The notes under the pieces: model-generated
What the model was told of the DNA's origin: nothing
The model's input: only the letters and a program-made list of their open reading frames with translations
Databases searched by the model: none
Source: Sphyrna mokarran
Lineage: Eukaryota
Length of the DNA stretch: 64,000 nucleotides
Direction of reading: 5' to 3'
Assembly (NCBI GenBank): GCA_024679065.1
Contig: JAGIQG010000008.1
Span: 97,092,001 to 97,156,000, forward strand
In this document: piece after piece, positions 20,701 through 50,946 of the stretch
Numbering within the stretch: the first letter of the stretch is position 1
Layout of the letters: each line of letters opens with the position of its first letter
Program-made: the position numbers and the translations under genes

Positions 20701-23700
20701 ACCATTAAGAATAGAATAAGAATAGAAGATTGGGTAGGACAAGATTAGGGCCACTCATAGACAGCAGTGGGAAGTTGTGCGTGGAGCCTGAAGAGATTGG
20801 AGAGGCACTGAATAAATATTTCTCTTCGGTATTCACGCAGGGTGATGTAAATGTAGTTATGGAGAACACTGAGGTACAGGGTAGCAAACTGGGAAGTATT
20901 GAAGTAGATAGGGAGGATGTGCTAGATATTCTCGAGGGTTTGAAGTTGGATAAGTCCCCTGGGCCGGACGGGATTTTCCCTAGGATGCTCTGGGAGGCAA
21001 GAGAGGAGATTGCAGAGCCTCTGGCTCTGATCTTCAGGTCCTCGTTGGTTACGGGTGTGGTTCCGGAGGACTGGAGAATAGCGAATGTGGTCCCATTGTT
21101 TAAGAAGGGGAAGAGAGACCTTCCAGGGAATTATAGGCCAGTGAGTCTTACTTATGTTGTGGGCAAGGTATTGGAGAGAATTATTAGGGATAGGATTTAT
21201 AGTTATTTAGAGAGAAATGAATTGATTGGGGATAGTCAGCATGGGTTTGTGAAGGGTAGGTCGTGCCTTACTAACCTCATTGAGTTTTTTGAAAAAGTGA
21301 CTAAGAGGTGGATGGGGGTAAGGCGGTTGATGTGGTATATATGGACTTTAGTAAGGCGTTTGATAAGGTGGCCCATGGAAGACTTCTGCAGAAAATGCAG
21401 ATGTAGGGGATGGAGGGTGATTTAGCTAATTGGGTTAGGAATTGGCTAGCAGATAGAAGACAGAGGGTGGTGGTTGATGGGAGATATTCATCTTGGAATT
21501 CGGTGACAAGTGGTGTACCTCAGGGGTCTGTTTTGGGGCCCCTACTGTTTGTAATTTTTATAAATGATCTGGATGAGGGTATTGAAGGATGGATTAGTAA
21601 ATTTGCAGATGACACTAAAGTCGGTGGAGTGGTAGATAGTGAAGAGGGGTGTTATAGTTTGCAGACAGACTTGGACAAGTTGCAGATCTGGGCCGAGAGG
21701 TGGCAAATGGAGTTTAATGTGGAAAAGTGTGAGGTAATGCACTATGGCAGGAATAATAAATGTGTAGAGTATAGGGCTAATGGTAGGATTCTTAGTAGTG
21801 CTGATGAACAGAGGGATCTTGGTGTCTATGTGCGTAGATCCCTGAAAGTAGGCAGTCAAGTCGAGAAGGTTGTTAAGAAAGCTTATGGAGTCTTCGCTTT
21901 TATTGGTACGGGGATTGAATTTCGGAGCCACAACGTCATGTTGCAACTGTACAAAACTCTGGTGCGGCCGCACTTGGAGTATTGTGTGCAGTTCTGGTCC
22001 CCGCATTATAAGAAAGATGTGGAGGCATTGGAGAGGGTACAGAGGAGGTTTACCAGGATGTTGCCTGGTATGGAGGGCAGGTCTTATGTAGAGAGGCTGA
22101 GGGATTTGAGGTTGTTTTCGTTAGAAAGGAGGCGGCTAAGAGGGAACCTAATCGAAACATATAAGATGATTAGAGGTTTAGATAGGGTGGACAGTGATAG
22201 CCTTTTTCCTAGGATGGAGAAAGCTAGCACGAGGGGACACAGCTTTAAATTAAGGGGTGATAGTTATAGGACGGATATCAGAGGTAGGTTCTTTACCCAA
22301 ATGGTGGTTCGGGAGTGGAATGCCCTGCCTGCGGCAGTTGTAGATGCGCCAAGTTTGGTGGCATTTAAGAGGTTAGTTGATAAGTTTATGGAAGAGAAGG
22401 GAATGGTTTAGTTTGGAGGGGCATTGCTTTTTATATTGGTCGGCGCAACATCGAGGGCCTGTTCTTTGCTGTAATGTTCTATGTTCTATTAGTTGAACAG
22501 GCTTATCTTTAAATAAGTGAAACCTGCTTGTGCCCATGTATAGTGTTTAAGTCAGTTTGAGAATATTGGAAATTAGGAGAATAATGAATACCATGAGATC
22601 CCATTTAATGGTTGGATTCCTGAAAACTTTGATGTGAAACAACCTTGATTTCTATGGGAACTCAATGGTGAAGCTGGAGTTTAGTTTTCCTCGGCGAAAT
22701 GTGTCTCTCAGAACGCATGAAAAAGCTTTACCACACATGTACACTACTGTGCATTCCTAGCTGAGTAATTTGAAAAATAAAATAAATCATCGAACCTAGT
22801 AGAAATATGTATGAATTCAGATTAGATAACTCTAAATCAACCAAACAAACCCTGAGTAACATAGCTTCTGTGTCTCCCCACAGAAACTCAGCTCAATTTT
22901 TTTGCTTGCTTTCCTTTTGCACACTGTGTCAGTCTCCTCTCCCATTCTGTCTGTCTCTTTCTTTTCCTAATCCCTGTCTCGATTTACTATCCTGTCTAAT
23001 CCTCATCCTGCCCCAACCTAGAGGAGTGCTCTGACTGACTCCCAGTCTGAGGCTGCAGCTGAGTTCATTGCCTAAACTTCTTCCTGATCACCTACAGAGG
23101 CAGACTCCAATCTGGAATGTGTTGGATGGGAAGGAGATGGATTTAGCTGGCATCTCCCTTGCTGTCTCCTTCTCCACATCTCTTCCCTAGACACCCCCTC
23201 CGCACCCCCCATTCCCCGCTCATACACTTGCACCCTCAAAATTTTCATGCGCATCACCATCTAATTAGTGCACAGAAGCTTCCCACACAGAGCCAACATA
23301 CCACTGCTGTGAGTGGCACTGACTGTCCTGGCTAAGACTCTGTGTATTAGGCTCCCTGGCCTGCCCTCCTGCTCCCGGCTCCCTGGCCTTGCAATAGCCT
23401 TAACCTTTGTGAAGTTAGTGGCATAGCCAGTATCAAACTGTAGTAAGGGTAGGGACTGCCAAAGTGCAAACGATGTAAACATGAAAATGATGACACCAAG
23501 TGGAAAAAGCAGGACCAAAATATCAAGGTTTCCCTAACAGACATTAGACCAGATGGGTTTTTCCAACAATCAATTCATGGTCATTTTTAGAATTTTAATT
23601 TCTGTTGTTTTATTGAGTTGTTATATTCTACCATCTGCCATGATGGGAATCGAACCTGGTTCCCCTCTAGCTCTCAGGATTATTAGTCCATCCTCCCTGA

Positions 23701-26700
23701 AGAGTTTTGTTGCAGGATTTGCCACACCACTGGCTAAACTATTCCTGTATAATAAAAAATTTTGGCACAGATGCCAATATGCTAAATTGCCTGTCTACAA
23801 AAGAAAGGATAAATCCAAGCTAATCAATTACTGCCTCATCAGTCTACTCTCAAAAATCAGCAAAGAAGTGGAAAGCATCACTATGAAGTGCTATGAATAG
23901 GCACTTACTCAGCAATAATCTGCTCTCCGGTGTTCAGTTTGGGTTTCACTATGGGCACTCAGCTCCCGAATACATTACAGCCTTGGTCATGAATAACAGA
24001 ACTGAAACTGAGAGGGAAGATGTGAGTGACAGTTCTTGATATCATGGCAACATTTGCCCAAGTGTGCCACTAAGGAGTTCTTGAAACCTGAAGTAAGTGG
24101 GATTTGAGGAGTGGAGGGAAGCTTTCCATGGGTCAGAGTGTAATCCGCAAACAGCATTTCCCACTCATGGCTAACAAAAATCACGTGACTGGAGGCTACT
24201 TTCATGAGGGCAGTTGCCTCAGTGAATCCTAGATGACCTGCATGAAAGGTGCCACATTTGGGGTCAATATTTCCAGACTGTGAAGAAAGAAGCTTTGTCA
24301 CTGTGCAAGTTCAGGCCAAAGTTGACCATAGTTCCTTATTTGCCTGCTTAGTCTTTGGTTAAAACTGTCTTTGAAAAATCTTTACTCTAATTTCCATTAT
24401 TCTTGTTTTCACCACTTCAATATGCATGCAAATGAACTGACCTATGAAATACAGAGTAAGTATTTCTCTGGGTCGTTAGTAATTGCAGCTTATTTTCATT
24501 GGTGCAAAAGGAGTGTGGTTCACCGCATTTTTGGGTTATTTAGAGAATTTGTTAACAGCACAAGTCTGTAATTTCAGATTTCTTAAAGGCTTTCATATAT
24601 TTAAATATCTTAAATTGATTTTTTTTAAATGGAGTAATCTGAGAACACATTTGGTGCAAATGACAGTTTATTGTGGCAATTGTAGTCTAAATGCATCTGT
24701 ATTTCTTTTTCTACTTTCAGAACCTGAGGAATATTCACCACTATTAGCAGTTATTGCAAGTATAATTGGTACACTGCTAATATGTGCATTTTTGTTTGTC
24801 ACTGCAGTTTTCTACTGGTTCAGATTGAGAACAGGTAATGTATATACTGTTGAAACCTTTTTATTGTGCAGTAATTTTGTATTTGTGTGGACATTGTCCT
24901 TGTCATTCTTTTGGCCTTGTGTGCTTGTGTACCCAACAAATTGTCCAGCACAGAGTTAGAAAAAGCAACCTGGAGTTAACATTTAGCTCTGGGCAATCTG
25001 GCTGCAAATTACACACCAGTGTTTCTACAAAAATGAATTTTCATATTGTCAAATGTAAAGTGCCATCATTAATCAGTGCAATTTTGGTTTAAGAAATATT
25101 CTTTCATGTTCTTAAGCACAGTAATTTAGAATCACCAGTAACAGTATGCTGCGGTCAAGTCAAAAAGACATTCTGCCCATCACAGAAATGAATACTGTGG
25201 TATATGAATTTCAGTGCCAGTGCAATCTTTGGTATATACAAAGACTATCAGATTGTATCAAACAGCTGTTCCTTTCCGTTGTTTGCAACAGGCATGGTGC
25301 AGAGTGCAATCAACTATTATGTGCTTGCAAAACTCAAAACAATGTCAACATTAAATGTCATTCCACAATTGGACATTTGCTAAATAAACCTCAATGTTCT
25401 AAGGATTATGATGACAAGCAATTTTGCATGTACTGAAGGATATATATTGATTCACAGGGCCCTGTTCTTTGCGAACAGGTACACACATTGCGATTGTTTC
25501 AACTAAAAAAAGTATGTGACAGCAATTCACTGGTTCATTCTTCAGGATAATGCCTTGACCAGAGTCATATTGCATCGTTTAAATTGGCAGTCACCGTTAA
25601 CTGATGTGTTCTCCTTGGTGATGTCTGTACCAATCAAGAGTCCGCTTGCCAATCAATGAATATTTCATCTGATTGTGATTCGCTTTACATTTGGTATTCT
25701 TGCAAATTATCCTGATGAGTGCAAGATGAAAGAACTTGGATGAAAATGTACTTCTTTTTCAGCAATGTTGAAATTCAATACTGCCAAATGACTAACTTAG
25801 AATCAAGAAATGATACAATAGAAGTGGATTGGCTCATCGGATCCATTCTGGGTCTCTGCAGGAGATAGTTCCACTTCCTGCTCTTACCCCTCGAGCCAAT
25901 TCAGAACGATCATGACTGGTCTGATTGTGGCTTTGACTCTCTTTTCCTGCCTGACCATGGGAGCTGCACTGAAAAGTCTCCCTCCTGTTCATCACTAATC
26001 TCTGACTCCTTTCATCTTAGCCAATTTCATATCCACTGTGCCACTATCCACTTTATTCTATAGGTTTCAACTCTGTTAACAAGTCTATTAAGTAACATTG
26101 ATATAAATGTATCTATCTCCTACAACATTCCCTTTATAAATTCTCTCTGTTATCGACACAAAATAAGTTACACATAATTTGCCTTTAACAATTCTATGTT
26201 GATTTTCTGAATTAATCCACATTTATCCCAACGGATTTAGTCTTGAAACATTATTTCTAAAAGCTTCTTTATCACTCTGGTTGAATTGACTGGACTGCAA
26301 TTGCAGGATTTATCTTTTCACCTTTAGTTTTGAAGAAGGACGTAGTTTTTTATTTATTAGTGTCACAAGAAGGCTTACGTTCATGAAGTTACTATGAAAA
26401 TCCTCTAGTCACCTCACTCCAGCGCCTGTTCGGGTTCATTGAGGGAGAATTTAGCACGGGAGGAAACCAAAGACCCAAAGAAAACCCATGCAGACATGGG
26501 GAGAACATACAGACTTCACACAGGCAGTGACTCAAGTTAGGAATTGAACTTTGGTGCCTGGTGCTGTGAGGCAGCAGTGCTACTCCTGTGCCACCCAGCA
26601 TTTGCAATTCCTCTGTTCTTTCGTGCCTCTCTCATATTTCTGGACATAATGATGAAACTCTGCTGCAAATTTCAAGAAAGTGTGCATTTCTAATGTGCCC

Positions 26701-29700
26701 TGCAAGTGGCACCATTTTAAGTATCTGAAAATTACATATAAAGGATCCAGAATTGTTTGCTCGTTTTATTGGTGTATAATAAACTATTTCAAGAAAAATA
26801 GTATTCAAAACTTATAAAATTTGATTATTGGTGTTTCTGTGCCAAAAAAGGCTAATTGTAAAAGAAGGTTGGAAATAGAAACATTTAAATGCTGGAAACT
26901 CTGAGCAGATCTGGCTGATTTGGAGGCATCACTAACCTGAGGCACTGATTGTCATTCTTTCGCTACAGATGCTGGAAAACCTGTTGAAATTTTCATTTAT
27001 TTACTTAAGACCTTGAAGCCAAACAGGTCCATGTACAAGGCTTGGGTGAAGTGATTGACTTGACCTTGAGCCATGGCCCATTGTGTTGATGGGGCGAGCT
27101 TCAGCACATAACTTTCTAAACTAGCTCAAAAAGGTCACAGAAATTTGATTTGTGCTGATTGCAGTTTGCACTGCTTTCGTTGTCTGTATTAAGTCTTCGG
27201 AAGCAAAGGTCCCTTCACCAAAATCCCTTTATTTATAAGTCTGACAACAGCATACAGAATGCTTTCAGTTAGCAGTCTACACTAGGAGTCCCAGAAGAAC
27301 TGACACTCCTGGTTAAATACAAAGCAAGAGGCTCCCTGAATAACTCATCAGTTCTAACAGGCCAACCTCAATTGCCTGATTAAAGTCATTACATTTGGCT
27401 GAAATAACTTGGGGAATAAAGCAGCACAACCTAATTGAAACCTCTGTCCTATGCAGATAGATAAGGTATAATGTCTTCTATGTATACTTCTTCACTCAGC
27501 CAGTGGCCTAGCAAGAAAATAAATAAATCAACATATGAGCGTTTAAACTGTTAACTGTTATTTTGTTTTATTAGTTCCTCCGGAAATTATTGTGAACAAA
27601 CCTTCCATCATTTGCCATTTAGAAGAAGCTACCATCAGTTACCAAATTCTGAAGTTCAGACCTCGGGAAATTATAATTAATTTACTCATGAAGAGGACGA
27701 AGGATCAAAAGCAAAAAAAGATTTTTGAATGGAGTAGCCTGGAGAACAAAACCAGTTTACCGTCCAGAGATACAACCAGTGAAGTGCAGCTTCTTATCAA
27801 TGGCAGTGAAGAAGACCCATCTTTTCGGCCATCGCAGCCAGTAATTTCTAATAATGGAGATAGAACCTTCAAATTACAGGGCGCTATCAAAATATATCCT
27901 GATATATTCAAAGATAATAGGGCCGAATTAATTTTCCACATTCAGCATCAACCCTTGGCACAAGCTGTTCTGAAATCTGTAACACTGGACATTAGAGGAG
28001 GTAAATCATGAACATTATTATTAATGCTTTTTGAATCCAGTCTGGATTTATTTTGTGAACTTGTGTCTTTGAATATATGAAGTGACATGTGCTTAATCGT
28101 AATAAAGCAGTTCTGCCATCTGTAGTCTCCAAATTATGGAGAAATCCACCTGTGAAATAGTATGTTGTAGGTAAAGATGCCTCTGAGACGAATTGAGTCA
28201 AAGTACAGTAGTTTATTCAAAAGCTTTTGGGAGACACACCTGTCACCTAACAACGGTTCCCCAGTGTCTCTCCAAATACAAGTTAAGAGCATATATTTAT
28301 ATCCCCAATCATGTATGCATCTCCTCATTCTCAGCAAGTTCCCAAGCTGTGGGTTGTCCTCCATCATGGGAACATGGCTGCCTCGGCATTTCTTCATGGT
28401 TATCTCAAGGCCACAATTGAGTGTGTGATTAGCTCTTAGCTAACATTCAGGCTGACAAGACAAGTTAAAATTAACGGGTTATATAACATATGTATAATAT
28501 GTTGGTACATGACACATAAGCAGTATATAATGTGTACATATGAAATATATTTAGTACATATAAACTTCACTATATTAGGCGAAAGTCCACGAAATTAAAG
28601 AGACAACTTAACTACAAGCTGGGTCAGCTATATTTCTGGGCGGACTTATCATAAACTTAATAGCAAGAGCAGTTGCCGCCTCCCTGTCTGGGTCACCTGA
28701 AACTTGTGTACAACAACAAGGGCAGCTACAGTTTGGGCACACAAAAACAAAGTTACATTTATCTGAAATATATAAAAACAGGCTGCATCTAGGTTACTGG
28801 ATATTTTTCGCATTCTCTCAAGTGTTATAAAGTTCGTTAACTCATTCCCTACTGCATAGTATTTTCTCACTCTTATTAATGCTGAAAATTATTTTGGATT
28901 AAATTGTTGGCTGTTTTCTGTTTTGTTTTTTGTTCCCAAAGTCCCACCAAAAGTTTCAAACATTGTGGCACCGCTTCAAACTAATCACAATGAACCTGTG
29001 GCCTTGACTTGTTCAATCAATGGCTTCAAACCAAGACCATTAATGATAACATGGCAACAAGTGGACATGGATGGCAGGTTGAAAGAAATTGTTCGTTTGG
29101 ATCAGAACAACAGTACAATTTTTGCTGCTGACGATGGGATAATGCAAAAGTATAAACATCAAATAAGTGAGATTGAGTATGAAGATAAATCATATGGCAT
29201 CACCAGTATCCTAATTGTTGTGCCAAATATATTTCAAGATCAGAACACAAAGTATATCTGTGAAGTACAACACGAATGCACTCAGAGTGTGGTGATGAAA
29301 GAAATAACGTTACATGTTAGTGGTATGTAATATTTTCGACATTTTTAATGAGTGAAGAGTTCTGAACATGATATTTCTCCAACTGAGGTTATTGTGTAAC
29401 TTTTTATTTTGCACTTAGCCCATTCTGAATTTTCAGAACACAATGGATTAAATTATCTAGCCATTGGCTGAGATAGGGTAGAATCCAGACCCAGTATCTC
29501 TAATCTGTCTCTGTTAAAATCTACAGTAACTTTGTTTTTCCTGTTTCTTATTCAGCCCCTCCAAAACTGGATAAGATAACATGTGAAGAAAAAACAATTG
29601 CAGGAGAGCCCATGACTTTATACTGTCGAATACATTCTTTCTACCCCAAGAAAATTGAAGTTACTTGGCTCAAAAGTGGTGAAGAAATGACAGAAAAATC

Positions 29701-32700
29701 TGAAGACATTGAGCCAACTCTGGGAAGTGATGGACTCCATTACTTGACAAGTAGTGTGAAGTGTGTACTGACCAAAGCTGATGTTGGGAAGACGTACACA
29801 TGCCGAGTAGAACATAAAAGCCTAGTAGTGCCATTGGAAGTTAACTGGGTGCTCAATCGACTGGGTAAGCAACTGTTACCACAAACAAAAATAAGTATGC
29901 TTACTGGATGAAAATCAAATCAAATGAGAAAGTGACAGATGATTATACTTTTATCGCATTTTCTTTATCATGAATCAGAGCCAAAACAAATCACACATTA
30001 TGTAACAAGGAAATTATGTGACAAAAAGCTAAATTTTACTTTAGACATGAGATATCACATTGATTTTCACCCCCCCCTCCCATATAGTTACACAGTTCCA
30101 TAAATAAAACATTGTCCTTTATTTGTGCAGGGAGTCCTATCTGACAACAGCTTTCACCTTCATGTTTCATGAATATGAGCACCGACGCATGTTTCTATGA
30201 ACCCTCTTCCCCCTCCAGTCACAAATATGATGTTGTAGCTTTCCAGACCTCAGAGTTCTTTTCCAACTGGTCAAATTATAACACTTTGCAGTTTAGCCAC
30301 TTGGGGGAAACATTCAGTTTTTAAGCATCTGCAAGCTCTTTACACAGTCTTCCAGGTTTTGTGTACGCATCACCAGTTTGCACAGTACCTCAGAAGAGTT
30401 CCCATCTTCTATTTTTCTGCCAAACAGGCAAAATTGATTTTCTCTGTAGAAGAAACCACTTGTATTTCTCCTTTTCTGTATTTGTATTTTTTCTGCATCC
30501 ATGCACCAAGTATCTTCACCTTCCAACTCATCTGCTTGTGGCAGTCCTTTGAACCTAGCTGCCAGCCACACAACTTCTTTGTTAACCTCCTTTCTTTTTT
30601 TACTGTTTCCAGATCAAGGGTTGCCAGGTCACATGGACCTGTATTTCTTATTATTTGAAGGAAATTTCAATGACTTCTTTTACAGTTGATACAGACGTTT
30701 AAAACTCTTCAAAACGTTTACAGATTCCATGTACTTTTCAAGGAATTACATTTTCTTTGTGTTTTGCTTCAGTGTTGAAAAATAGTAGAGCATCTGACAG
30801 GTATCAGTTTACAAGACTCTTGCTCATTTAGGGATGTATATTGTTTGTGTGGCAGATTTCTGTGAGCTGATACCATAATAATCTGGGGAAAATCTGGTGC
30901 AGGAAATGCAGTTATATATCTCCTTAGCTTTTAACAAACTTAAGATTTTTCACTTGTTCATGGAACATGGGTATCACTGAACAAGGTCAACAAAAAACCC
31001 ATCCCTAACGATCCTTCAGAAGATGGTAAGCCACCTTCTTTAACAGTTGCAGTTTGTGCTAGGTAGGTACTCCCACAGTGCGATTGACAGAAATTCCAGT
31101 AATCAAAAGGCAATATATTTCCAAATCAGGATGGGCGTGTCATTTGGAGAGGAAATTGTGTGATGTATTCACCTCTACTTTTGTACTACTAGGTTAGTTA
31201 TTGAGTGAACCTTGGTAGATAGCCACAGTGTGTCCTACAGGAAGTACACATTACTGTCACTGTGTGCTGGTGGTGGAGAGAGTTAATATTTGAGGAGATA
31301 AATAGGGTATCAAATAAACAGACTTCTTTTGTTGTAGATGGTGTTTGAACTCATTGAAATTTGTTGGAGCTGCATTTATCCAGACAGATGGAGATTATTT
31401 CATTATTAGCCCGTCTCATGCCTTGTAGTTGGTGCAAAGTCTTCAGAAGACAGAGTAATGAACTTCTCATGACTAACCTGGTTAGCCATAAGAGATGCAT
31501 GGTTACAGTGGTTAGCACTGCTGTTTCACAGCTCCAAGGACTTGGGTTCGATTCCTGGTTCTGCTCACTGTGTAGAGTTTGCACAGTCCCCTCATGAGTA
31601 CTTGGGTTTCCTGCAGGTGCTCTGGTTTCCTCCCACAGTCCAAAGATGTGATTTGCCATGCTAAAAATTGCCTCTTAATGTCCTGAGATGCGTAGGTTAG
31701 AGGGATTAGTGAGTAAAATATATGGCGGTAGGGCCTGGGTGGGATTGTGGTCAGTGCAGACTCAATGGGCCAAATGGCCTCTTTTTGCATTGTAGGGTTT
31801 CTATAATTCTATGAACCCAGTTAAATTTCTGGTCAGTGGTGATCCAAAGATGTTGATCACAGGCAAGGTTTGGCAATTATAATGCCCTTGAATATCAGTG
31901 GAGGTGGTGTCAAAGGTTGATGGTTAGACTCTCTTTGTTGGAGATGTTTATTGCCTGGCAAATGTGAGGTCTGTATGTAACTTTGTTTATCAACCCATAT
32001 CTAAATGTTATTCATGTCCTGCTGCATGTGAGCATTGAATGGGGTCTGACATTATGGTAGTTATTACATCCTGGTTCAGGACATATCCAGGAATAGTGAT
32101 AGACAATTCTAACACATTCATTGAGAGGTATTATTCTGAATCTAACTAAATCAGCCTATTACTTAAAAGTCTACTCAGCAGCTCATTCAATTTGGCACTA
32201 GTTCCCAGATGTTAGTCAGAAGGATTTGCAGTCTTGACTGGGATGGTTGCATCAAGTGGTGAAATCAAGAGTGCGGTGTTTGATGGAGAGAGAAATTCGT
32301 TCAGGCAAATTTAATGTCTGAGAGAAAAAACACAAAAGAAACAATAGTTTATATAAAATTACATTTAAACATGTTACTTTCCTAAAATTTGCAAAAAAAT
32401 ATAAAGTACTAGACAGAATTCTCATATTTAGTTCACTCCTGTCTCTGCTGATCTGCTGAAATCCTCATTTATGCCTTTTGTTAAGCATTGACTACTATAT
32501 CGCACTCCTCACAAGTATCACGTATTCTACCCTCTGTAAAATTGAATCATACAGAACTCTGCTGCAATTACTTTGGGATGTTTCATTTTGAAAACACTAT
32601 ATTTGTGGAAGTTATTAATGTTCCGTGCTGGAGGTCATGACAGGCCATAATCAACACATCGTTAATTGAGCTTTTAAATTAAAGATGATGCCATATCTTT

Positions 32701-35700
32701 AAGATAAACTCTGTAATTTTTTTGTGGTGCGTTCAAGGCAATCCAAACTATTTGTGACACGTTTAGTTCAATAACTACTGTACAAAAACAGTGATATTGT
32801 TCCTTTCAATGCATTCAAATGGCGAGCCAGAGACCTAGCTGCTATTTTCACAAATGTGATGGCAATTCAGTCAGCAACTCTTATCTAAGTCCGTAAATAC
32901 TAGATTGTTAATGAATTTCTTTTGAAGTGTAATCTTTGGTTTTCTGGGCAAACAGGGCAATTTGTGCAAAGCAGTGTCCCACAAACAGCCATGTGATGGA
33001 CAACCAGTTCTTCTGTTTCTTTTTTGCTGAGTGTGTTAGAATGTGTGAAATGTTGGTCAGAACTCCTTGCTCTAGGGAATAAGTTCAATGAGATCTTTGC
33101 CAGAAGAGGTGAATCCAGCTACTTTTTCTTTCTGCAATATAATGACCTAACTTTCTGTGAATTATTCCCTCAAGCTCTGGGATGGCACTTAGCAACTAGA
33201 TCCTATTCAAAGGTGAGAGGCGAACCAAGCTGAGCGGTGTTGCAAAGCATTGTTTGCAGCCCTACGTTAACTCGTAGGCAGAAAGCATCATCTGATTTCA
33301 GCCTGAGCAATTGAAAAGTAAAACACAAAGAATGGCTTCCTGTGTTGTCATTTGGCCTGTCATATCCATGCCAAATTCTGCTAAAGCAACCTGCTCTAGT
33401 CATTCCCCCATTATTTCCCTCTACCCTCCAATATTTTGAGCTTCAGTTAATTATCCAGTTCACTTTTGAAAACTATAATTAAATCTACCTCTACCCGCTC
33501 ATGATATTAAACATCTTTAGCAAATTCCTTCTTAATCTTCTCTGCTCTAAGCAGAATGATTGCAGCTTTTCTAGTCTGTCCACATCCTTCAATCCTTTGT
33601 TATAGTAAATCTCTGCAGCAACCTTAAACATCCTTTCCAACACAGGGTGCCTGGACTTGAAGACCACACTCCAACTGGGGGTTAACTAGTGATAAGACTG
33701 CAGATTCGATCACTGAGTTAACTGAGGCATTGGTGGAGCACAGTAATCTGCCTTGGCCCCCATGAACTAGATGAATTATCACTAATTACTGACTCTCGGT
33801 TTCAAAGATTGAGTGTTTTAACTGGTGAATGAAAGATTAGGTTTGAATAGCCTCTGAGCATTCATTGTTCAGTCTCAAAAATGACAAGTGATAATGTCCA
33901 GCAGATGCCGGAGCAACTGTGGTCTGGGACACTGTGAAGGAGTGAAAAAACCAAAGCAGAGAAAAATGATGTTTTGTTCAAAACATCAATATTTGAAAGT
34001 TTATCAAAGTGCAGTAGAGTTTTGATTTAAATTGTGGTATTCATTCAGTTATGCAATCCCATTAACACTGTTTATTTTATATATGTCAGTGTCCAAGCCA
34101 AAGATAACAGAGGTTATAGCAGATCCTGTTCACCCAGAAGTGGGAAAACCTGTAACACTTTCCTGCAAAGCATTCAACTTCTTCCCAGAAGACAATAAAA
34201 TATTCTGGTTCAAAGGGTTTGAAAAAACTGAAAATGGCGTTCAAACGGAAGACGTTCAGTTGGATAAAGCAACTGGTTTATACTTTCGATGGTCGAAAAG
34301 GACATTTATTCCAACTTATTTGGACCACGGAAAAGAGTTCAAGATGCAAATCCTTCACTCTGAAACTTCAAACAAACCTATCTCATCCAGCCATTTTCTG
34401 AAAATAATGGGTAAGCAAGATCCCAGAAATCTCATAGTACCAATTATATTGAAAAGAGATATGTTCCAAATTCATGAATGTGACATGTTTTAATAGAGAC
34501 TATTTAAACAAAGATAACAGCCATTATAATCACTTCAGAGACTGTTACCTTTGAAAGAGAAATCTGAACACATTCTAACCAACAGAACTATGCTACAAAA
34601 TTTCACTTTCTGAAAAAAAAGAACCAGTTTTATTGTATTGAAGAAATTAAAGCGAGTACGATTAACTACATATATTATGCACTCTGGTTTACATCTTTTT
34701 CCCAAAGAATTCCCTTATAAGACACATCAGTATTAAAGTTATTTACTTCTGTATGGACCCCATAAATGTGCCACTGTATTGGGAATATTCTCAGAAGAAA
34801 AATACTTAAAATCTGATAGAGGTGAAACCCGTGATGAGGCTAGGGAAAGGCTAGCCCATTGCACTAGGGGTGGGCAGACGCCTTTGATCATGGTTCGCTT
34901 AAGCCAAATTAGAGTGAAGGATCAGAATAGCCAGTGAGGTTAAACCAAGACTTTATCTGATGCAATTTTTCAAAGCCACCTTGGCCTTTTGGCTGAGATG
35001 AAGCGTTAGATCAAGCCCAGGAGGGGGATGCAACGTCTCATCATGTTAGCTTGGATCTTGTTTCAATGAGCCCAAGATAGGATTATTCATTCATTCATGG
35101 GAAATGGGCATTGCTGGCTGGTCAGCATTTATTGTTCATCTCTAATTGCCCCGGGATAGTTGAGAGTCAGCCACATTGCTGTGGGTCTGGAGTCACATGT
35201 AGGCCAGATCGAATAAGGAAGGCAGATTTCCTTTCCTTCCCTTCCAAAGGACACTAGTATACTAGTTAGGTTTTTCCCAACAATTAACAGTGGTTTCATG
35301 GTCATCAATAGATTCTTAATTCCAGATTTTGGTTTTAATTGAATTCAAATTCCACCATTAGCCTTTGTAGGATTCGAATTTGAGTCTCCAGAACATTAGC
35401 TAAGTTTCTGGATTATAATCTAGCGATAATACCACTGGGCCATCATTCGTCCAATGCAAAGTCTTGTTTGTCCTTCATCTGGAGACCTTGGTTGTCTTCA
35501 TTTAAAATAGCTTCTTTGATTAGAAATAAAGCTGCCAAAAAAAAACTTTATTTAACATCTCTGGACAGTGGCTGCCCTAGTCTTTTTCAAATACTTCTAA
35601 GCTAATCTGTTTTGGATGCTTTATTTGCTGAAAGACTATAGGGACCATCGGGGAGTCAGTTAGCTCAGTTGGCTGGCTGGTTAGTTCACGATTAGTGTGA

Positions 35701-38700
35701 TGCCGACAACACAGGTTCAATTCCCTGACCAGTTGAGGTTATTCATCAATGCCTGCCTTCTCAACCTTGCCCTTTGCCTGAGATGTGGTAATCCTCAGGT
35801 TAAATCAACAAATAAAGCTCAGCTGTGAGAGCTTCCAACCTGAATTCTCTCCCACCCAGACATCTTGCTGGCAGATTTTGAGATGGGAGAGAGGGCAGGC
35901 AGTTTTGCGATGGGGCAGACTGGGCCTCTATGACACTTGCCCCTGAATAATTCCTTAAATAGCCACTTAAGGACCCTTTCCCACCCAGCTTCACTTATTG
36001 GGCTTCACACTGAGGGCACCCTCCACTCAGGGCTATGTTTCCATTGGTTCCCAGGATGACAGGAGCCAACCATGGCTGCCTCTAATAGGATGCTGGCATG
36101 GCCTTTATTTTGTAGATAATTTTAAATATGCCACTGGAGGAATGGGCTATCTGCTTCAGAGTGCCTTCAGAAATGGTGCCATGTCACTTACATTCCTGCT
36201 TTGCTTGTGACCTTTGCTTTCAGTGGTAGAATTGGTCCCAAATTGTGCTATTCCAACATAATTGCAATTATCAAATCAGTAGCATGAATGTTCTGTAAGT
36301 AAGAATTTTTTTTTTAAGCTGTAAGCCTAAGTTGCACAATGGTAAATGGGATGACTGCTCTTGTATAAAAGTCTATGGCTTGTATAAAAATTGCACATTT
36401 GGGAGAAAAAGCCATCTTTTGAATCTCCTTTTTGACACTTCAACCTGATGACTATTTGGTACAGTAGTCAATTGTAGTTTCATGCTATTTTTTATAGGAA
36501 TTCCATCTGTTGAAGATATCAAATTTGATCCACCGGAAGCCGTATATGGTTCAGATCTTGTTTTGAGCTGCAGCATCTCTAACTTTTACCCACAAACTAT
36601 TGAAACAGCTTGGCATAATAAACAAGGCCAGATAGTCAAAGGGATCATAATTAAAGGACCTGTGAAGGATGAAAGAGGATGTTTTCGGTTGACTTCCCAC
36701 TTGCAAATAAAACCAACTGCACAAGATTTCAATGAAGTATTTTACTTCCACGTGAATCATATGCAGCTAAAAGCTCCAATTGTAAAACAGACATCTCTAA
36801 CACTTCCAGGTAGGTTTTATCCTGATCCTTCTATTTACAAGTTTGAAAAGTTCCACTTCACTTTTAAATATTTGTGATTTAAGTGAATGCCTTAGGCCAC
36901 ACACAAATAAGTGGGGGCAGCATGGTAGTGCAGTGGTTAGCACTGCTGCTTCACAGTGCCAGGAACGCAGGTTCGATTCCCGGCTTGGATCACTGCCTAT
37001 GTGGATGTTCACCCCCGTGTCTGCGTGGGTTTCATCCAAGTGCTCTGGTTGCCTCCCACTTCTGAAAAGCATGCTGATTAGGTGCATTGACCGGAATAGG
37101 GGAATTTCACAATAACTTCATTACAGTGTTAATGTAAGCCTTACTTGTGACCAATAAATAAACTTAATTTTAACTTTAATCCAACTAGATATGAGAAAAT
37201 TTGGAGAAGAACACGTTTATTATGAGCCATTTTACATTAAATAAGTAATTAGAATTTGATACATTGGAGAAAAAAACTTCAATTTAAGTTACTTGAAGGA
37301 TATTTGATTTAAGGCAGTTATATTCACTGTAAAATATTACATTCCCATTAAATGAATCTTGCAAGTTCTGAACTTCTTTCTGCCTTAAAACATCAGTTCT
37401 TCAGCTTGTTAAAAATATCAAACTTTCACAACAAATCTGTTAAATAGGATTTTGACATTTTTCTTTTGTGTGATACAGCTTCCTGCCTGAATATTAATTC
37501 AATGACCTTTATTGTCTGGAATGTCCCTTTGACACCTATGGGTATCTGTTACAACATATTGCAGTAAAATGGTACACCAAAGTACTCCTCCAGATCAGTA
37601 CTATTCTCAAAATAATCTTTTCTGTACCTAATTTAAACTGTACATCCATAGAAGATATTACAATAATTTTCTTTTAGCAAGTTCATGCATATTTATTAAT
37701 ATGTGTATAATTCAGACTAGAAGATAAGATTAATTCATTTGCTTCAATAGGAAACGTTCATGACAATTTTAATTTGTTTTTCAGCTCATTCTCCTACCTT
37801 GTCTTCTATTGAAGCTGATCCACCAGTCCCTGAAGCTAATCAGCTTGTAACATTCAGTATCTCATTGAAAAGCTATGCTCCTGAAGTTGTCCAAGTGAAG
37901 TGGTTTAAAAATGGGAAACCTTGTTCAGGACAAGTTAGCAATTCTTGTCCTGTGATTGCTAATGATGGTCTCTTTTCATCAGTCACAAGCATTAAATTTA
38001 AAGCAAATGAGAACGATCATGACAGTTTGATCAGATGTGAAGTGATTCATATAGAAACGAAAGAAATTCAAGAGAAAATTTTCAAATTACTCCTTAAAGG
38101 TGGGTGTTGTTTCATGGGATTGAATTCAAAATAAAGGATTTCAATACAATTGTTATAATTGCAATATTGATGGTTTTGTTGGAATTAGAAGTACTCATTT
38201 ACATGTTTATATGACAATGAAACTTAATATTGGATAAACATTTTTTTTACGGCTGGGAGTATTTTTCGGTAAATTCAGCTTCTTTCAATACAATTGAATG
38301 GGTTACTTAATACTCCTAACGTGTCAAACAAAATAAACATTTCTATGTATTTAACTAAATTTCTCTGTTTAGGTGTTGACAGTGAAGATGCAGCTTATGA
38401 AAACCTAGGAAATGATGAAGGTGAAGTATTCACTTTGAGAAGTTCCTGTTTTGTGCGTGTTTGTTGTAATCCATAATGGATCAGTGTAGCATTTCAGGTT
38501 ATTATACGGAATAAACAGATAGTCCTTTTTAGATCTGCTTCCCATTGTGGTAGAAGTATAAGGCAGTAATGATACGATGACATTCTGCATTCTAGTTTCC
38601 ATCATTTTTGCCTGATTTTATAAAGTTGTAAAGATGCTCATTGAGGGTCGCTGGGCAAAAGATGTTTAAAAAAAAACACATTTAAAGAACCAAACCCAAA

Positions 38701-41496
38701 TATAATTAAAGCTTTGCAAAATCCTTATTTCTTCAGTAATTTAGTATTTTTGTTTCCCGTTCCTAATGACTCATTTTCTGCCATTTGCCTTCAGACAAGA
38801 CAGGACATACATTTCTAATTCGTACGTTCCCTAGACGGATAGGAAAGGGAAATCAGGCTGGTGAGATTGCACTGGAAGCTCTTGACATCTACCCATTAGT
38901 AGCTCACACTTGGATTTATTGAAGCAGCAGCCTAGGCATAGGGATAAAATAGAGCTCAATGATTTCCTAGCTGCAGAGCATATTTCTACCATGTTAAGAT
39001 AAAACTGCCACATCTGGTCATTGCACAAACTTTTCCCTGAGTACGTCAACTAATAGTTTTTCTTCATGCTATCTAATCAAATCCAATTTTCAACACATTT
39101 TTAGTGCAACCTTATTTTTAATTAAAATGTGAATAGTGTGTGTGCATGTAGCATCGTGATTTTCTTAGGTGCCTTCTAATTGACAAGATGGTGTGAGTTG
39201 ACTGGGATTTGTGCCATTTCCTCAAAGCAGGAGAGATGGACCTGCAGTTGGCCGCTGAGAGTCTGCACTCTCCTCCTTTATGCTGGCAACTGCACGTAAA
39301 AATGGTTACAGTGAGATAAGCAAAGAGCCATAAGACATTCCTCCTCAGTCTGATGCACAGTTTACGGTGGCAGTTGGAGAAACTTTGAACAAACTGCTGA
39401 CAATTCTCCTCGCCTCCGATGGTTGTTCCTTTATTCAAATGTTCAAAGGTGGATTACAGTGCACAGAGTGGACTCCACTTTATCCATCAATTTCTGATTG
39501 TTTTTGGTTCTGTATATAATTAAAAACAGAAATCTTAAATCATAATATCATTGTTTGAGAATGGGCAAAGCATCCTGATCCTTCTATTGGCAACTGGTTT
39601 TACTGTGTCTCATCAGTGTTACATTATTCATGCATCAACGCTTTGGGTGTGTGTGCACACATATCTCTGTCCTGGTTATTGGGAGGGGAGAGAGTGAGCA
39701 CTAGTTCTCACTCTACAAGACTGGATGCACTGAGCTCAGCCTCACTGCATTCAGATACACTTAGAAAAAGAAAGGAGAAATATAACTTGGAATAGAAATT
39801 CAGGAATGGAGCTTATGTTAACTTTAACTGAAACAGTAATTGGGATCTCATGCTGTGTTTTCATTGAAGATTAACGAAAGGGTTTGTTCTGCGCAACCTA
39901 TGTGCAAATACCTTTTCTGATTTCCTGTCTATATCACCCAAAGTGCTTGCCTCAATCCGCATGCCTCTCTCCACGTTGAATTGTTATATGTCAGTTTTGG
40001 GGATCTAAGAAAAGTTGCCATCTTCTGAGACTTTTTCCTTGCAGAAATCAAGCAAAAAGTGCAAACAATCTGTGTCCTTGTGCACAGTAAACCTGAAACA
40101 TCAGAATGCAGACAATAGTGGATACAATGACAACCTTTGCATCATTCAGACACTGGCCTCTGTCTGAGCTTGGCATTCCCCAAGTTAGCTTTGTTTTACC
40201 CAGGCAGCCAGCCCTTGACACATTTGCCACCACTGGTAATCGCTGCTCCTCCTCTGTTTCTCGCCCTCGTTTGCTTCTGATCACTTATCAGCAACAAATG
40301 TGGGAATAGAATGGCCTGTGATTGGAAGATCAGCCCTTTGCAAAATCTTGAATTTCATTTACGTGCATTTGAACTGACCAGTTTGTCTGCCAGCCTGTAC
40401 CAGTTTTTGAGCAGTAGCTTTGGGGACCACATAAAAGGCCTGCAATCGTTGAACATCCAATTGATGAAGCCTGGTAGCAGACAGCCAATAATGCACTGGC
40501 TTTTTGAATCTTACCAGATCTGCTACGGTGTTCAATCTTTTTGTAATATGGACTGACTTGGTGCTTAATAGTTGAGGTCATGCTAACTGTCCCACTTATC
40601 TCCTTTGGTTCTCTCTTTGCCAGTTGCCAGGATGTGATATGTTTCATAATTGTTTCAAATTTAGTAAATTTCTCTGAACTGGAAACATGCCCATTCTGGT
40701 TGATAGTGCACAAATATTTGCCCAGAAATAAATAAATTGTATCAATTTGGCTTTTCTGTGCAACTAATATATAAACTAAAAACTTGTTAGTATTTATATA
40801 TAGCACTTCAATCTCGCAGTCAGAAGTTCCAGTGTGAAGAATAGAATTCCTCCTTGTATCTCACTCCTGATTATTTCTGTTTCTTCTTATGGCTCTATCT
40901 TCATTATTCCTTCAACTCCACATGCACTCAGTTGAGACAGAAAGATGGCTAGATTGGCTCTGACTGTTGTCTTGCTTATTTCTTTTCAAAGCTCGTGATT
41001 TATGCAGGGACTTGGTGACAAATGCCTCACTTTTTGTAGAGTATCGGAAGCAGTTGAGACTAAAATGAAAAGGCCCCTAGTGTAGGAATGCAGAGCTCTA
41101 CTGCTAGAATTTTCCTTGTATTAATAGAATTAAATCAATATCTATGTCACATTTTTTAAGAGTTTTATTGTTATGAATTTTATTCCAACAGATATTTTCC
41201 AGGAGGTGTCACAGATTACCTGTCAGACAGAATGTCCTAAAGCTGGCCAGCCTGTGACGGTTTCCTGCACAATTACAGGATCCGCTGCAGAAGACACCCA
41301 CCTCACTTGGTACAGAGATGTTTACCCTATTGAAGATATGAGCTGCATTACCAATACACCATTTAAAACTGGTGTAGGTTTCATCACTTATCTAACTTAT
41401 GTACCAAAGCAAGAGGATAGCTGTTCTAAACTCCAACTTGATGTGATTACTGAGATGGACCCAATTTGCAGATACTTCCAGCTGAAATTAAATTGA
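5670..41496 (+). CDS. NCR3LG1: B7-H6/NCR3LG1-like type I membrane protein with seven post-TM C1-set Ig domains (12 coding exons, 1104 aa)
   Basis: join(5670-5781,14787-15125,20085-20417,24721-24834,27575-28000,28942-29322,29556-29864,34090-34410,36498-36809,37785-38099,38373-38420,41192-41496) = 3315 nt open frame, all GT-AG and phase 1. IgV GDASLHLPKIQLAEEGEYTCTVFVTP resembles B7-H6 [26 protein letters not shown]. NUCB2 remnant adjacent. The symbol denotes family membership, not proven 1:1 orthology. Confidence 0.85.
6290..6475 (-). mobile_element. Penelope-like 3' fragment with hammerhead motif (6357-6396)
   Basis: Homologous to 2710-2880. Minus strand ATTTGC-CTGACGA-A-GGCT-ATAA-AGCC-GAAA-GCTT-GCGAGT. 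Confidence 0.75.
6594..8466. repeat. Long inverted repeat (arms 6594-7198 and 7861-8466)
   Basis: ~605-bp arms with about 4 differences seen; mirror-image ORFs 7007+/7729- and 6850-/7973+. Confidence 0.95.
8467..9360 (+). mobile_element. CR1 LINE fragment, degenerate
   Basis: ADDTK motif at the start, then IEYKSREVML and RGNLIE motifs. Confidence 0.85.
9937..10570 (-). mobile_element. Rex1/Babar-like non-LTR retrotransposon 3' end
   Basis: KKAHRRLYFLRRLRKFGMS..YRSTIESILS..LFHLLPSGKKYRS..KNSFFP motif chain and a short AAATC-type repeat tail. Confidence 0.8.
10705..12175 (-). mobile_element. CR1 LINE RT region
   Basis: VTSGVPQGSVLGPLLFIIFINDLD, DFSKAFDKV and QHGF motifs, with frameshifts. 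Confidence 0.95.
12690..13200 (+). mobile_element. CR1 LINE 3' fragment
   Basis: Degenerate ALKAVQRKFIR and RGDLIETY motifs plus CR1-type 3' UTR. Confidence 0.75.
13200..13960. mobile_element. Old L2/CR1-group LINE fragments in mixed orientation
   Basis: YKGQVRSVMDFS and KLKTIKDKA motifs; related fragments near 9740, 23700, 31000 and 56650-58750. Confidence 0.55.
13965..14545 (-). mobile_element. CR1 LINE 3' end
   Basis: TRGHSLKI..LRRNFFSQRVVNLWNSLP motif. Confidence 0.9.
14787..15125 (+). CDS. Exon 2, V-set Ig domain (B7-H6-like)
   Basis: tttag acceptor, G|gtaag donor; ISLECKF..GVQW..GDASLHL..EEGEYTC with both Cys and the core Trp. Confidence 0.95.
16268..16571 (+). mobile_element. tRNA-derived SINE
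   Basis: Head shared with the other SINE copies; CR1-type tail CTGCACTGTAGGGATTCT. Confidence 0.65.
16740..17360 (+). mobile_element. Old CR1 fragment interrupted by a minus-strand SINE (~17020-17290)
   Basis: Degenerate SILGP, GLEYKN and EYC..LRKDI motifs flank a SINE homologous to 412-699. Confidence 0.55.
17450..17720 (+). mobile_element. Penelope-like 3' fragment with decayed hammerhead motif
   Basis: CTGATAA..GCTCC-AAAAGCTCGTG followed by AAATAAACCTGTTGGACTTTAA and CCCCAGTCCAATGCC, matching the element end near 2680-2760. Confidence 0.6.
18262..18897 (+). mobile_element. Young CR1 3' end nested in an older CR1 (~18150-19190)
   Basis: Near-identical to 21871-22490, with (GTTCTAT)n tail. 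Splits the older element's RGD|IET motif. Confidence 0.9.
20085..20417 (+). CDS. Exon 3, extracellular C1-set Ig domain
   Basis: gcag acceptor, G|gtatg donor; TLSCDVTGFYP..IW..GTFSVSS..YRCFVTH; NLS sequon. Confidence 0.95.
20715..22490 (+). mobile_element. Young CR1 LINE, 5'-truncated ORF2 (RT)
   Basis: ORFs 20730-21425 and 21410-22411 with KSPGPDG, QHGF, PQGSVLGP and FADDTK; one frameshift and one stop; GTTCTAT tail. Confidence 0.97.
24721..24834 (+). CDS. Exon 4, transmembrane segment
   Basis: ttttctactttcag acceptor, G|gtaatg donor; EPEEYSP-LLAVIASIIGTLLICAFLFVTAVFYWF-RLRT, acidic before and basic after the helix. Confidence 0.9.
25140..25795 (+). mobile_element. Penelope-like element 3' fragment (GIY-YIG) with decayed hammerhead-like motif
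   Basis: KDILP..VVYEFQCQC..WYI..RL..IKQ; CTGATGA at 25712 and GAAA at 25728. Confidence 0.7.
26352..26598 (-). mobile_element. tRNA-derived SINE
   Basis: Homologous to 412-699. Confidence 0.7.
27575..28000 (+). CDS. Exon 5, post-TM C1-like domain 1 (both canonical Cys lost, long insertion)
   Basis: ttag acceptor, G|gtaaat donor; VPPEI..ATISYQILKFRP..GDRTFKL..ELIFHIQH..VTLDIR. Confidence 0.85.
28942..29322 (+). CDS. Exon 6, post-TM C1 domain 2
   Basis: aag acceptor, G|gtatgt donor; LTCSINGFKP..ITW..YICEVQH. Confidence 0.92.
29556..29864 (+). CDS. Exon 7, post-TM C1 domain 3
   Basis: ttcag acceptor, G|gtaagc donor; LYCRIHSFYP..VTW..DGLHYLTS..YTCRVEHKSL. Confidence 0.95.
31496..31812 (+). 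mobile_element. tRNA-derived SINE inserted in an old LINE
   Basis: GTGGTTAGCACTGCTG and GGTTCGATTCC boxes; CR1-like tail. Confidence 0.75.
34090..34410 (+). CDS. Exon 8, post-TM C1 domain 4 (F-strand Cys replaced by Met)
   Basis: tcag acceptor, G|gtaagc donor; TLSCKAFNFFP..IFW..EFKMQILH. Confidence 0.92.
34980..35009 (+). pseudogene. U2 snRNA 5'-end-like fragment
   Basis: CTTGGCCTTTTGGCTGAGATGAAGCGTTAG compared with U2 CTCGGCCTTTTGGCTAAGATCAAGTGTAG. Confidence 0.55.
35088..35445 (-). mobile_element. SINE-like repeat (third family)
   Basis: tRNA-like head on the minus strand; partial homologs near 4975-5160 and 23545-23690. Confidence 0.5.
35650..35810 (+). mobile_element. tRNA-derived SINE head (second family)
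   Basis: TTAGCTCAGTTGG and GGTTCAATTCC boxes; homolog of 3985-4125. Confidence 0.55.
36498..36809 (+). CDS. Exon 9, post-TM C1 domain 5 (F-strand Cys replaced by Phe)
   Basis: tag acceptor, G|gtaggt donor; VLSCSISNFYP..TAW..VFYFHVNH. Confidence 0.92.
36914..37178 (+). mobile_element. tRNA-derived SINE
   Basis: GTGGTTAGCACTGCTGCTTCACAG, GGTTCGATTCCC and family tail. Confidence 0.8.
37785..38099 (+). CDS. Exon 10, post-TM C1 domain 6 (B-strand Cys replaced by Ile)
   Basis: tttttcag acceptor, G|gtgggt donor; VTFSISLKSYAP..VKW..DGLFS..IRCEVIH. Confidence 0.92.
38373..38420 (+). CDS. Exon 11, 48-nt acidic tyrosine-motif micro-exon
   Basis: tttctctgtttag acceptor, G|gtgaag donor, phase 1-1; GVDSEDAAYENLGNDE. 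Confidence 0.7.
41192..41496 (+). CDS. Exon 12, terminal Ig-like domain 7 (F-strand Cys replaced by Leu) and stop codon
   Basis: ccaacag acceptor, phase 1; GQPVTVSCTITG..LTWYR..FITYLTYVPKQED..LQLDV; TGA at 41494-41496. Confidence 0.85.
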
Positions 41497-45954: not shown

Positions 45955-47445
45955 ATGGCAGGTAAAGAAACTAAGTGGGACCTGCGGGTTCCTTATTGAT
46001 AAATATATGACAAAGACACACTCGTTGATTAAGAAGATGCAAGGGATAACTGGGATGTTTCTCAGGCCTTAGAACAGCAGAGAAAGCGGCTAGATGTGGA
46101 AAAGAGAGACAGAACAAAAAAGGCAGGGATATTATTAGTACGTCAATTAGCTGGACTAATTGAACAAGTAGTCACCTCCACTAAAAAGTGGAATGAAGAT
46201 AAGTATAAAATTTTAAAATTAGAATCCAGAGTAAGAAATTGAAGAAGAGGAATGGAGTATTAGAGGAGAATCAATGGGGATGGGAAACTGTTTCTTTGCC
46301 TCCTTTATGAGTCCACACAACAGGGACCAACTGCCTCTGCAGAAGAAGGGGAATCACTAGGACACAACTTTGTGCCAGTAACCTGAGGGGGAAAAGACAC
46401 GCAGCCAATAGCAAATTACAAACCATTCACTCCGGGGGAGAGACAACAGAGAGATAATGGCCTCCTTGGGTAAATTACAACCTAGAAGTGCAAGTACGAA
46501 TTTTGGGAAGAATTAGATACAGATTGGATAGGACACCGACTGCACTAAAGGGATATACACCAACTGGTTAAGGTTGCATGTCCAGTAGATAAATGGAGCA
46601 GATAGCCAGAGGGCCTAACATTCCTCCAGTTCAAGACTACAGTGGGGACATTGGACATGTCCTGACTTTGATTCTGAGGCTATTAATATATCATTTACAT
46701 AATGTAGAATCGTGCTACCCTCTGGTAATTCTATACTTTTCAGGTTGTCGCTCATTACTTGATGGAAGACGGAATCCCTGCAAAAGGCGAGTCCAAGTTT
46801 ACTGTTTGTCTCTAACAGCAGAATTAAATGCCCTCTTCACCCTGTTTAAAACAGAAGTCCAGACAGTTTTAGGAAATGCCCCTACCAATTGAAGTAAAAT
46901 CACAACAACCATGCAATAAAAGGGTGAAGGGGCCTCTGAATATGGGGAATGGTTGTTCAAGTATATCAGGAATGCTCAGGGCAAGGAAACCCAGGTCGTG
47001 GGTATCGAGCCTTTATTCAAGCTTTCAAGCATGAGCTCTCTGGCATTCACCAAACCATCTTAAAAATGGGAGTGACCATGTCCCAGGATTATGATGAACT
47101 GGTGAAATGGGATGGAGGCGGCGGGAGGAGAAATCACAGACAAAGATAAAACAGAAAAGAGTAGCTAGCTGCCTATGGTAACAGAAGCGGAACTAAGCCC
47201 AAACTGACCTGTCACAATTGTGGCCGACAGGGGCATTTTGCAAAGGAGCACCAGTCCCAAGGAAAGGAAATAAATTTGGAAACAGTGGGAGATATTGTAA
47301 TTATTATAATAAAAATGGACACGGAAGCAATATGTTGGGACAAATATGGGAGGCCACTCTCCCGATTCACGTCCACAGCGGAATTGGAGGAAATAAGGAA
47401 CCTGTGAGATCAGCAAGACTGACGGCTTGCAGCCCCTATTCATGA
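45955..47445 (+). pseudogene. gag: ERV gag remnant
   Basis: Lies between PBS and protease; degenerate Cys-His box CNYYNKNGH; disrupted frame. Confidence 0.6.
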
Positions 47446-47449
47446 GGGT

Positions 47450-50400: not shown

Positions 50401-50807
50401 CAACCAGATTAACCACTTATGAACTAATGTCAGGAAAGGCAATGCAATTACCAGAAAACATCATAACAGTTGAGGCTGATGTAGGCCCAGTAAAAGACAA
50501 AATTAAACAATATGTTTTGGAACTAAGCATACAACTAAAAAGGATGTGTAAATTAGTAAGAGACAATCAGAAAGAAAGAGATGCACAGAGAGAGCTTGAA
50601 ATGCTCCCTGACGTCCCGATGGTGGGATGTCATGTCATGGCAAAAACATTACCTGAAAAACCGGGATTTGTGCCGAAATGGAATAAGCCATGTGAGATCA
50701 TAATCAATGGAGATACCTGTGCCTGTCTGGACATGAGAGGGAAAGGTGTATGGAAACATCGGATCCAGCTGAAATTATACAAAGAAACGAATGATATTAA
50801 TAAGTGA
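47450..50807 (+). pseudogene. pol: ERV pro-pol remnant
   Basis: PR, RT, RNase H and IN motifs in retroviral order across ORFs 47607, 47982, 48184, 49132, 50057 and 50376. Confidence 0.92.
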
Positions 50808-50946
50808 ACCATAAAGTAACCAGAGTGCTTTCCCCAAAACAGGAGACGACTACAAACAAGATTAACTGAAGCGTTCGGGTTGGCAATACAGCCTTTGTGA
50901 AGTTGTTAATATAGAGTAATAAGATCAATTCTTTCCTGTTGCAAAC

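Follow-up and report, generated by a model that had tools for sequence, protein, structure and literature searches.

A B7-H6/NCR3LG1 gene of Sphyrna mokarran encoding seven immunoglobulin domains behind its transmembrane segment, predicted to lie in the cytosol

The window analysed here, a stretch of 64,000 nucleotides from the shark Sphyrna mokarran, contains a gene of the B7-H6/NCR3LG1 locus itself, as judged by sequence, contact residues and synteny, whose product continues behind a single transmembrane (TM) segment with seven further immunoglobulin (Ig) domains. The explanation regarded here as likely is that of a shark B7-H6 whose outer V-C1 part is shown to NKp30 and whose seven-Ig tail resides in the cytosol. 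C1-set domains, a hallmark of adaptive immunity, are taught to be extracellular or lumenal, and the Ig domains of the cytosol are mostly I-set. A conserved cytosolic array on an NKp30 ligand, if true, would thus be a clear exception to the extracellular rule for C1-set domains.

Gene structure and identity of the locus

An exon scan of the window yields 12 exons on the + strand (Table 1), which join into a frame of 1104 aa with one stop through internal junctions that are all AG/GT and all of phase 1. The domain order is leader, IgV, IgC1, single TM and seven Ig domains (D3-D9) with no anchor; 805 aa lie downstream of RLRT, and past the leader only one peak of hydrophobicity is found (19-residue window, above 1.3 Kyte-Doolittle). 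This confirms the preliminary description, in which a signal peptide, IgV, IgC1 and a single TM were spliced in frame to six Ig exons, a micro-exon and a seventh Ig exon, giving about 800 aa after the TM and ending in a stop without C-terminal anchor; exon edges moved by a few bases. A RefSeq model of Mustelus asterias is the nearest protein, with 78% identity across all 1104 residues, and the first AATAAA past the D9 stop is located at 42067. The introns carry remains of LINE-type reverse transcriptase (20700-22490, 10940-12190 and 18250-18890), and the first intron holds two near-identical copies in opposite orientation, at about 6720-7210 and 7860-8420, that encode one peptide on both strands. 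Broken retrovirus-like remains, with reverse transcriptase and integrase fragments in differing frames, occupy about 46600-52000 and have fragments of another element on either side, with a match to RVT_2 near 53700.

Table 1. Predicted exons of the gene, in window positions
Feature	Position	Strand	Basis
Predicted leader exon, ATG and hydrophobic core, phase 1	5670-5781	+	Scan; Mustelus orthologue aligns from residue 1
IgV exon, B7-H6-type FG loop T-P-x-K	14787-15125	+	Pfam V-set, 36 bits
Extracellular IgC1 exon, canonical Cys pair	20085-20417	+	Pfam C1-set, 38.8 bits
Sole TM exon; acidic upstream, basic downstream	24721-24834	+	Hydrophobicity scan, charge
D3, tail Ig 1, divergent, canonical Cys pair absent, long disordered loop	27575-28000	+	AlphaFold fold
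D4, tail Ig 2, C1-set, retains Cys pair	28942-29322	+	Pfam
D5, tail Ig 3, C1-set, retains Cys pair	29556-29864	+	Pfam
D6, tail Ig 4, C1-set, without F-strand Cys	34090-34410	+	Pfam
D7, tail Ig 5, C1-set, without F-strand Cys	36498-36809	+	Pfam
D8, tail Ig 6, C1-set, without B-strand Cys	37785-38099	+	Pfam
Micro-exon of 48 nt, acidic linker with YxxL/YxN tyrosine motif	38373-38420	+	Scan
D9, tail Ig 7, divergent C1-like, ends TGA, no anchor	41192-41496	+	Pfam C1-set, 14.6 bits

From the perspective of their class, the tail domains are not uniform, and their C1-set assignment rests on profile matches; the canonical disulfide pair is missing from five of the seven tail domains in this gene and in most relatives. 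The Pfam cut-off for the C1-set (21 bits) is passed by five of the seven tail exons, D4-D8, at 33-66 bits; D9 stays below it, and a profile search of the D3 exon gives no Pfam match. The description of all seven as C1-type therefore stands for five of them, with D9 under the cut-off and D3 unmatched in Pfam yet of Ig fold. AlphaFold models D3 (6 sequences, pLDDT 77.5) as an Ig sandwich (VIA Z 12.6, rmsd 2.5 over 112 residues) whose structural top rows are V-set chains, and in a tree of 66 C domains D3 is sister to D4 (support 100/99). The AlphaFold modelling proposed earlier for the tail was carried out on the full-length nurse shark orthologue (36 sequences; mean pLDDT 83.4, pTM 0.41), and shows nine beta-rich domains, those of the tail being Ig domains, with long helices at the leader and the TM only. 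A search of the ESM Atlas returned generic C1-set clusters only.

Human B7-H6 accounts for the top three PDB sequence matches of the nurse shark orthologue (E 3e-32; next 2e-19) and is the best single-domain PDB match of the V exon alone (44.5 bits); for the same exon, the two-domain sum is higher for CD276 than for B7-H6. The modelled ectodomain superimposes on human B7-H6 (3pv7) with an rmsd of 2.0 A and a TM-score by target of 0.89. The main NKp30-contact residues in the FG loop of human B7-H6 are described as T127, P128 and K130 (Li 2011, PMC3135353). The corresponding loop is present in the V exon of the window, and among 36 aligned sequences these contacts are kept in 28/36, 32/36 and 29/36, respectively; the remaining human NKp30 contacts are poorly kept (V125 in 2/36, F82 in 1/36 and G83 in 16/36). 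Binding of NKp30 (NCR3) in sharks is somewhat more probable than not.

Regarding gene order, exons of the RPS13 family, a PI3-kinase and a nucleobindin are located at 96.42, 96.55 and 96.69 Mb, directly ahead of the gene cluster to which the studied gene belongs (140-410 kb before it), with identities assigned by Pfam family and not by gene tree. This upstream order is that of the human genes, given as RPS13, PIK3C2A, NUCB2 and NCR3LG1 (PMC3826498). On the opposite flank the human neighbours KCNJ11 and ABCC8 do not adjoin the cluster: Kir-family matches, at 86.9 and 60.7 Mb, come no closer than about 10 Mb, and those to ABC families lie at 25 Mb of this contig, which implies a rearrangement. 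The KCNJ11-ABCC8 synteny was not taken as defining, since the other flank, the sequence and the names of orthologues agree. Nor is a Gag-homologous tail present, the tail exons showing either a match to Ig families or an Ig fold; reptile proteins named NCR3LG1 also carry an Ig tail, so that the Gag tail does not define the family. The earlier label "B7-H6-like" was right as to relationship and too cautious in claiming mere likeness. The shark protein shares with human B7-H6 the predicted type I topology, the V-C ectodomain and its fold, the T-P-x-K loop and the upstream gene order. It differs in being one of seven paralogues and in its length of 1104 aa with seven post-TM Ig domains, compared with 454 aa and a Gag-homologous tail reported for the human protein (Brandt 2009, PMC2715080).

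Membrane crossing and side of the tail

Comparison among databases supports the prediction that the exons form a single transcript. Within a collection of 207 proteins, 118 combine strong V and C1 domains with a tail domain (isoforms and paralogues included), and the TM lies between C1 and tail in 113 of these, with an anchor after the last domain in none (0/118). The other five models (P0014, P0064, P0104, P0203 and P0206) join C1 straight to the tail without a TM, and two of them are annotated isoforms of TM-bearing genes. In a second set, composed of reptile proteins, exactly one TM between C1 and tail is found in 22 of the 29 mapped members, and four of the 29 have no TM at the threshold used. 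The TM is joined to the tail, with nothing between, in independent annotations of at least nine vertebrate lineages, and a TM exon precedes D3 in 6/6 tail-bearing genes of the shark cluster. A sturgeon-cluster protein of 784 aa (V-C1-TM-D3-D6) was called on a Logan contig of 2,754 bases, which is too short for introns, and the sequence is therefore likely to be a spliced transcript. In sequencing run X1, whose type is guessed, the fraction of 27575-29864 words is 0.44, versus 0.45 expected from exons only; this was not counted as evidence.

As for the side of the membrane on which the tail resides, three lines of comparison point to the cytosol. Net charge is higher downstream than upstream of the TM in 33 of the 36 aligned relatives, which bears out the type I orientation first read from EPEEY before and RLR after the TM. 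The canonical Cys pair, complete in the ectodomain (V 36/36, C1 36/36), is largely gone from most of the tail (D3 1/36, D6 0/36, D7 8/33, D8 3/31, D9 7/26), these sequences being related and picked for long tails, so that the counts are not independent trials. Loss of the canonical disulfide is read as a sign of cytosolic location; against that location, D4 and D5 retain the pair in 34/35 and 36/36. Extracellular multi-C1 controls (seven proteins, called extracellular from their TM position by the analyst) keep it in 39/39 and 9/9. Finally, compared with shuffled sequences, the part before the TM is enriched in sequons (86 vs 60 expected, ratio 1.43) and the part after it is at chance level (144 vs 147, 0.98); the controls reach 66 vs 30 (2.2) and 10 vs 3.4 (2.9). 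The same pattern is seen in 22 proteins, mostly named reptile orthologues, with 68 sequons vs 43.8 before the TM and 69 vs 68.8 after it. N-glycosylation of the post-TM domains, which had been named as an observation that would contradict the cytosolic array, thus finds no echo in the sequons beyond chance. Taken from these comparative data, a cytosolic tail of a type I protein is very probable, and the proposal of a cytosolic Ig array stands as a prediction with comparative backing, qualified by the disulfides of D4 and D5.

Two other arrangements of the tail have to be weighed against this one. Because all exons are of phase 1, skipping of the TM exon would keep the reading frame, and the tail might mainly be used in a secreted isoform (leader-V-C1-Ig x7), as a soluble decoy or multimer, and be carried only passively by the TM form. 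The five TM-less models and the disulfides kept by D4 and D5 would fit such a product, but the TM is retained in 113/118 models, and the combination of a largely lost disulfide in five of the seven tail domains with sequons at chance level is unlike true extracellular arrays; this reading is considered improbable. Much less probable still is that the post-TM exons form a separate gene or that a hidden second membrane segment places them outside: the leader-like ATG and hydrophobic stretches in the TM-to-Ig intron are of chance type (six rows, which stem from the ATGs at 24838 and 25912), the intron scan found no separate hydrophobic internal exon above thresholds between the TM and D3, the hydrophobic stretch of catshark D4 that exceeds the threshold (4/207 proteins are flagged) aligns to the N-terminal strands of an Ig domain, and both the annotations of the nine or more lineages and the cluster genes join TM to tail. 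The earlier statement that no new leader precedes exon 5, and the absence of a second TM exon between 24834 and 27575, hold within that scan.

Distribution, age and turnover of the tail

The preliminary description called for a search for the architecture across chondrichthyans, amphibians and reptiles; V-C1-TM-tail proteins prove to be no peculiarity of sharks and are shared from chimaera through turtles. A query with the tail returned 37 proteins, including those of sharks, rays, chimaera, sturgeon, reedfish and frogs, and 20 looked up among 150 further matches added coelacanth, lungfish, caecilian, bichir, newt, lizard and turtle. A query with a lizard protein returned 31 proteins, mostly of squamates and turtles, many of them named natural cytotoxicity triggering receptor 3 ligand 1. 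The tail thus ranges over sharks, rays, chimaera, sturgeon, bichir, coelacanth, lungfish, amphibians, lizards, snakes and turtles. The nurse shark orthologue (QTT61906.1, 1092 aa, 55% identical) has all nine domains in matching architecture and was deposited as "natural killer cell cytotoxicity receptor 3 ligand (B7H6)". In lizards, snakes and turtles the order is V-C1-TM-D3-D5...D9, as in the shark gene but without D4: domains of the D3-D9 series were mapped in all 29 reptile-set proteins (29 of the 31 matches, two weak ones being left out), with D4 assigned in none. Birds, crocodiles and mammals are not among the 31 lizard-query matches, nor teleosts among the named matches, in searches too insensitive for a loss to be read from them.

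In the tree of 66 C domains, which is based on only 106 columns and omits eight outgroup rows that were partial or near duplicates, the domains at each tail position from shark, chimaera, sturgeon, coelacanth, caecilian and frog form one group (D3-D8 starred, D9 74/97). The array would thus predate the split between cartilaginous and bony fishes, and from sequence comparison the Ig tail is probably the ancestral state of jawed vertebrates. Given this distribution, the Gag-like tail of human B7-H6 is most simply seen as a later replacement. A conserved cytosolic array would redefine ancestral B7-H6, would mean that an older functional module gave way to the Gag-like tail, and would offer a handle on what the B7-H6 tail does. 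D5-D9 score best against one another, and the C1 of the ectodomain clusters with two further C domains of the genome (97/92), apart from the tail domains. The proposal that the tail arose by duplication of C1 exons beyond the TM exon, that is, from the C1 of the gene itself, is not supported by this 66-row, 106-column tree, whose deep forks are unresolved. Conservation of D4-D9 (0.40-0.46) equals that of V (0.46) and C1 (0.41), and a tail as conserved as the ectodomain may be expected to have a job.

The content of the tail also turns over between relatives. D5-D6 occurs four times in a stingray and D3 at least seven times in a horn shark, and other relatives carry a D6-like domain six times or low-complexity repeats that replace the Ig tail (the proteins concerned are P0007, P0012, P0071, P0121, P0125 and P0147). 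A tyrosine motif like that of the micro-exon, in a short linker, is found in 7/36 aligned relatives, all of them sharks; the micro-exon was consequently rejected as a core mechanism and does not belong to a conserved core.

Within the genome of S. mokarran, seven B7H6-type genes and two partial V exons are clustered at C1437:96831354-97286313 (96.83-97.29 Mb). One of these genes has no detected tail, two have D3 only, the studied gene has D3-D9, and the others have D3-D6, D3-D8 and, in an inverted gene, D3-D5 plus D7-D9, the D6 exon being absent from it. Window positions 35415-39269, which span D7, D8 and the micro-exon, and C1437:97202400-97198536 in the inverted paralogue form a block of 3.9 kb that is 96.7% identical, most other shared blocks being at 70-92%, which suggests a recent gene conversion. 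MHC class I/II-like C1 exons and ABC-transporter matches are clustered on another contig (C1548, about 85-92 Mb), and the B7H6 cluster is thus outside that region.

Proposed role and relation to known systems

Among known proteins, titin and obscurin share with the shark tail the tandem array of cytosolic Ig beta-sandwiches, and titin I65-I70 is the Foldseek top row for the whole model, at an rmsd of 47 A that shows tandem Ig domains only. The Ig domains of titin and obscurin are I-set, in muscle proteins without a TM, unlike the C1-set domains found here on a receptor ligand. SIRP, tapasin/TAPBPR and UrIg2 share V and C1-type domains and phase-1 exons with the shark gene, and UrIg2 is reported to carry nine C1 domains (PMC12227049), but in these proteins the C1 domains precede the TM and lie on the lumenal or outer side, unlike the shark tail.

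Ig domains behind the TM of B7H6 were not found described in the full-text literature searched, with key papers on B7H6 evolution lying beyond that search; in the matching papers B7H6 occurs in reference lists or in human-only text, and the supplement of the elephant shark genome gives 0 text matches. The chance that the tail has already been noted in print somewhere is put at about even. The statement that no characterised receptor has this architecture stands for the searchable papers only; in databases, orthologues already bear the names B7H6 or NCR3LG1. Gene, family and architecture are known from public annotations, under names that are silent on topology; what is new concerns topology, ancestry and function, and the predicted cytosolic C1 array appears uncharacterised.

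In the proposed mechanism, the outer V-C1 part would present the B7-H6 V domain to the NK/T-cell receptor NKp30. The tail may be a folded, disulfide-independent scaffold, with domains arranged like beads on a string, that docks cytosolic partners, a role read from anatomy alone and given an even chance. Such partners could control display of the ligand by retention, clustering or cortical anchoring, the tail could relay signals back into the ligand-bearing cell, and lineage-specific additions such as the tyrosine linker of sharks could be mounted on the scaffold.

Alternatively, the tail could be a cytosolic sensor or decoy whose domains are bound or cut by pathogen proteins, switching on the display of the NKp30 ligand. 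This would agree with a tail content that varies widely across paralogues and species, with seven paralogues of differing tails in one cluster and with the Gag homology of the human tail (Brandt 2009, PMC2715080), but D3-D9 have been conserved position by position since sharks and bony fishes parted, which is more in keeping with a stable host partner than with an arms race, and the sensor is held to be unlikely.

A broader reading joins several of these elements and, taken as a whole, is also unlikely. According to it, "inside-out" immune ligands would be ancestral in jawed vertebrates, with cytosolic C1-set domains as a swappable sensing module that couples intracellular infection or stress to the display of an NK-activating ligand; the class would comprise B7-H6 plus a sister group that has expanded in frogs, bichir and turtles, and humans would have kept the tail slot and filled it with a retroviral Gag-like domain. 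If true and undescribed, this would amount to a new signalling architecture in vertebrate immunity.

The sister group is made up of V-C(-C)-TM proteins in which the TM is followed by as many as about 14 C1-like domains, and includes, among others, P0094, P0096, P0112, P0119, P0122-P0124, P0126, P0140 and P0149; named members come from reedfish, frogs and a turtle. In a stricter first look, a sister-group protein gave one weak match in the genome from which the window comes. The V domain of this group is related to that of B7-H6 yet distinct, in many cases with a Y-S-P loop. Its sequons stand at 1.9 times expectation before the TM and 1.2 times after it, and 19/25 and 73/102 domains retain the Cys pair.
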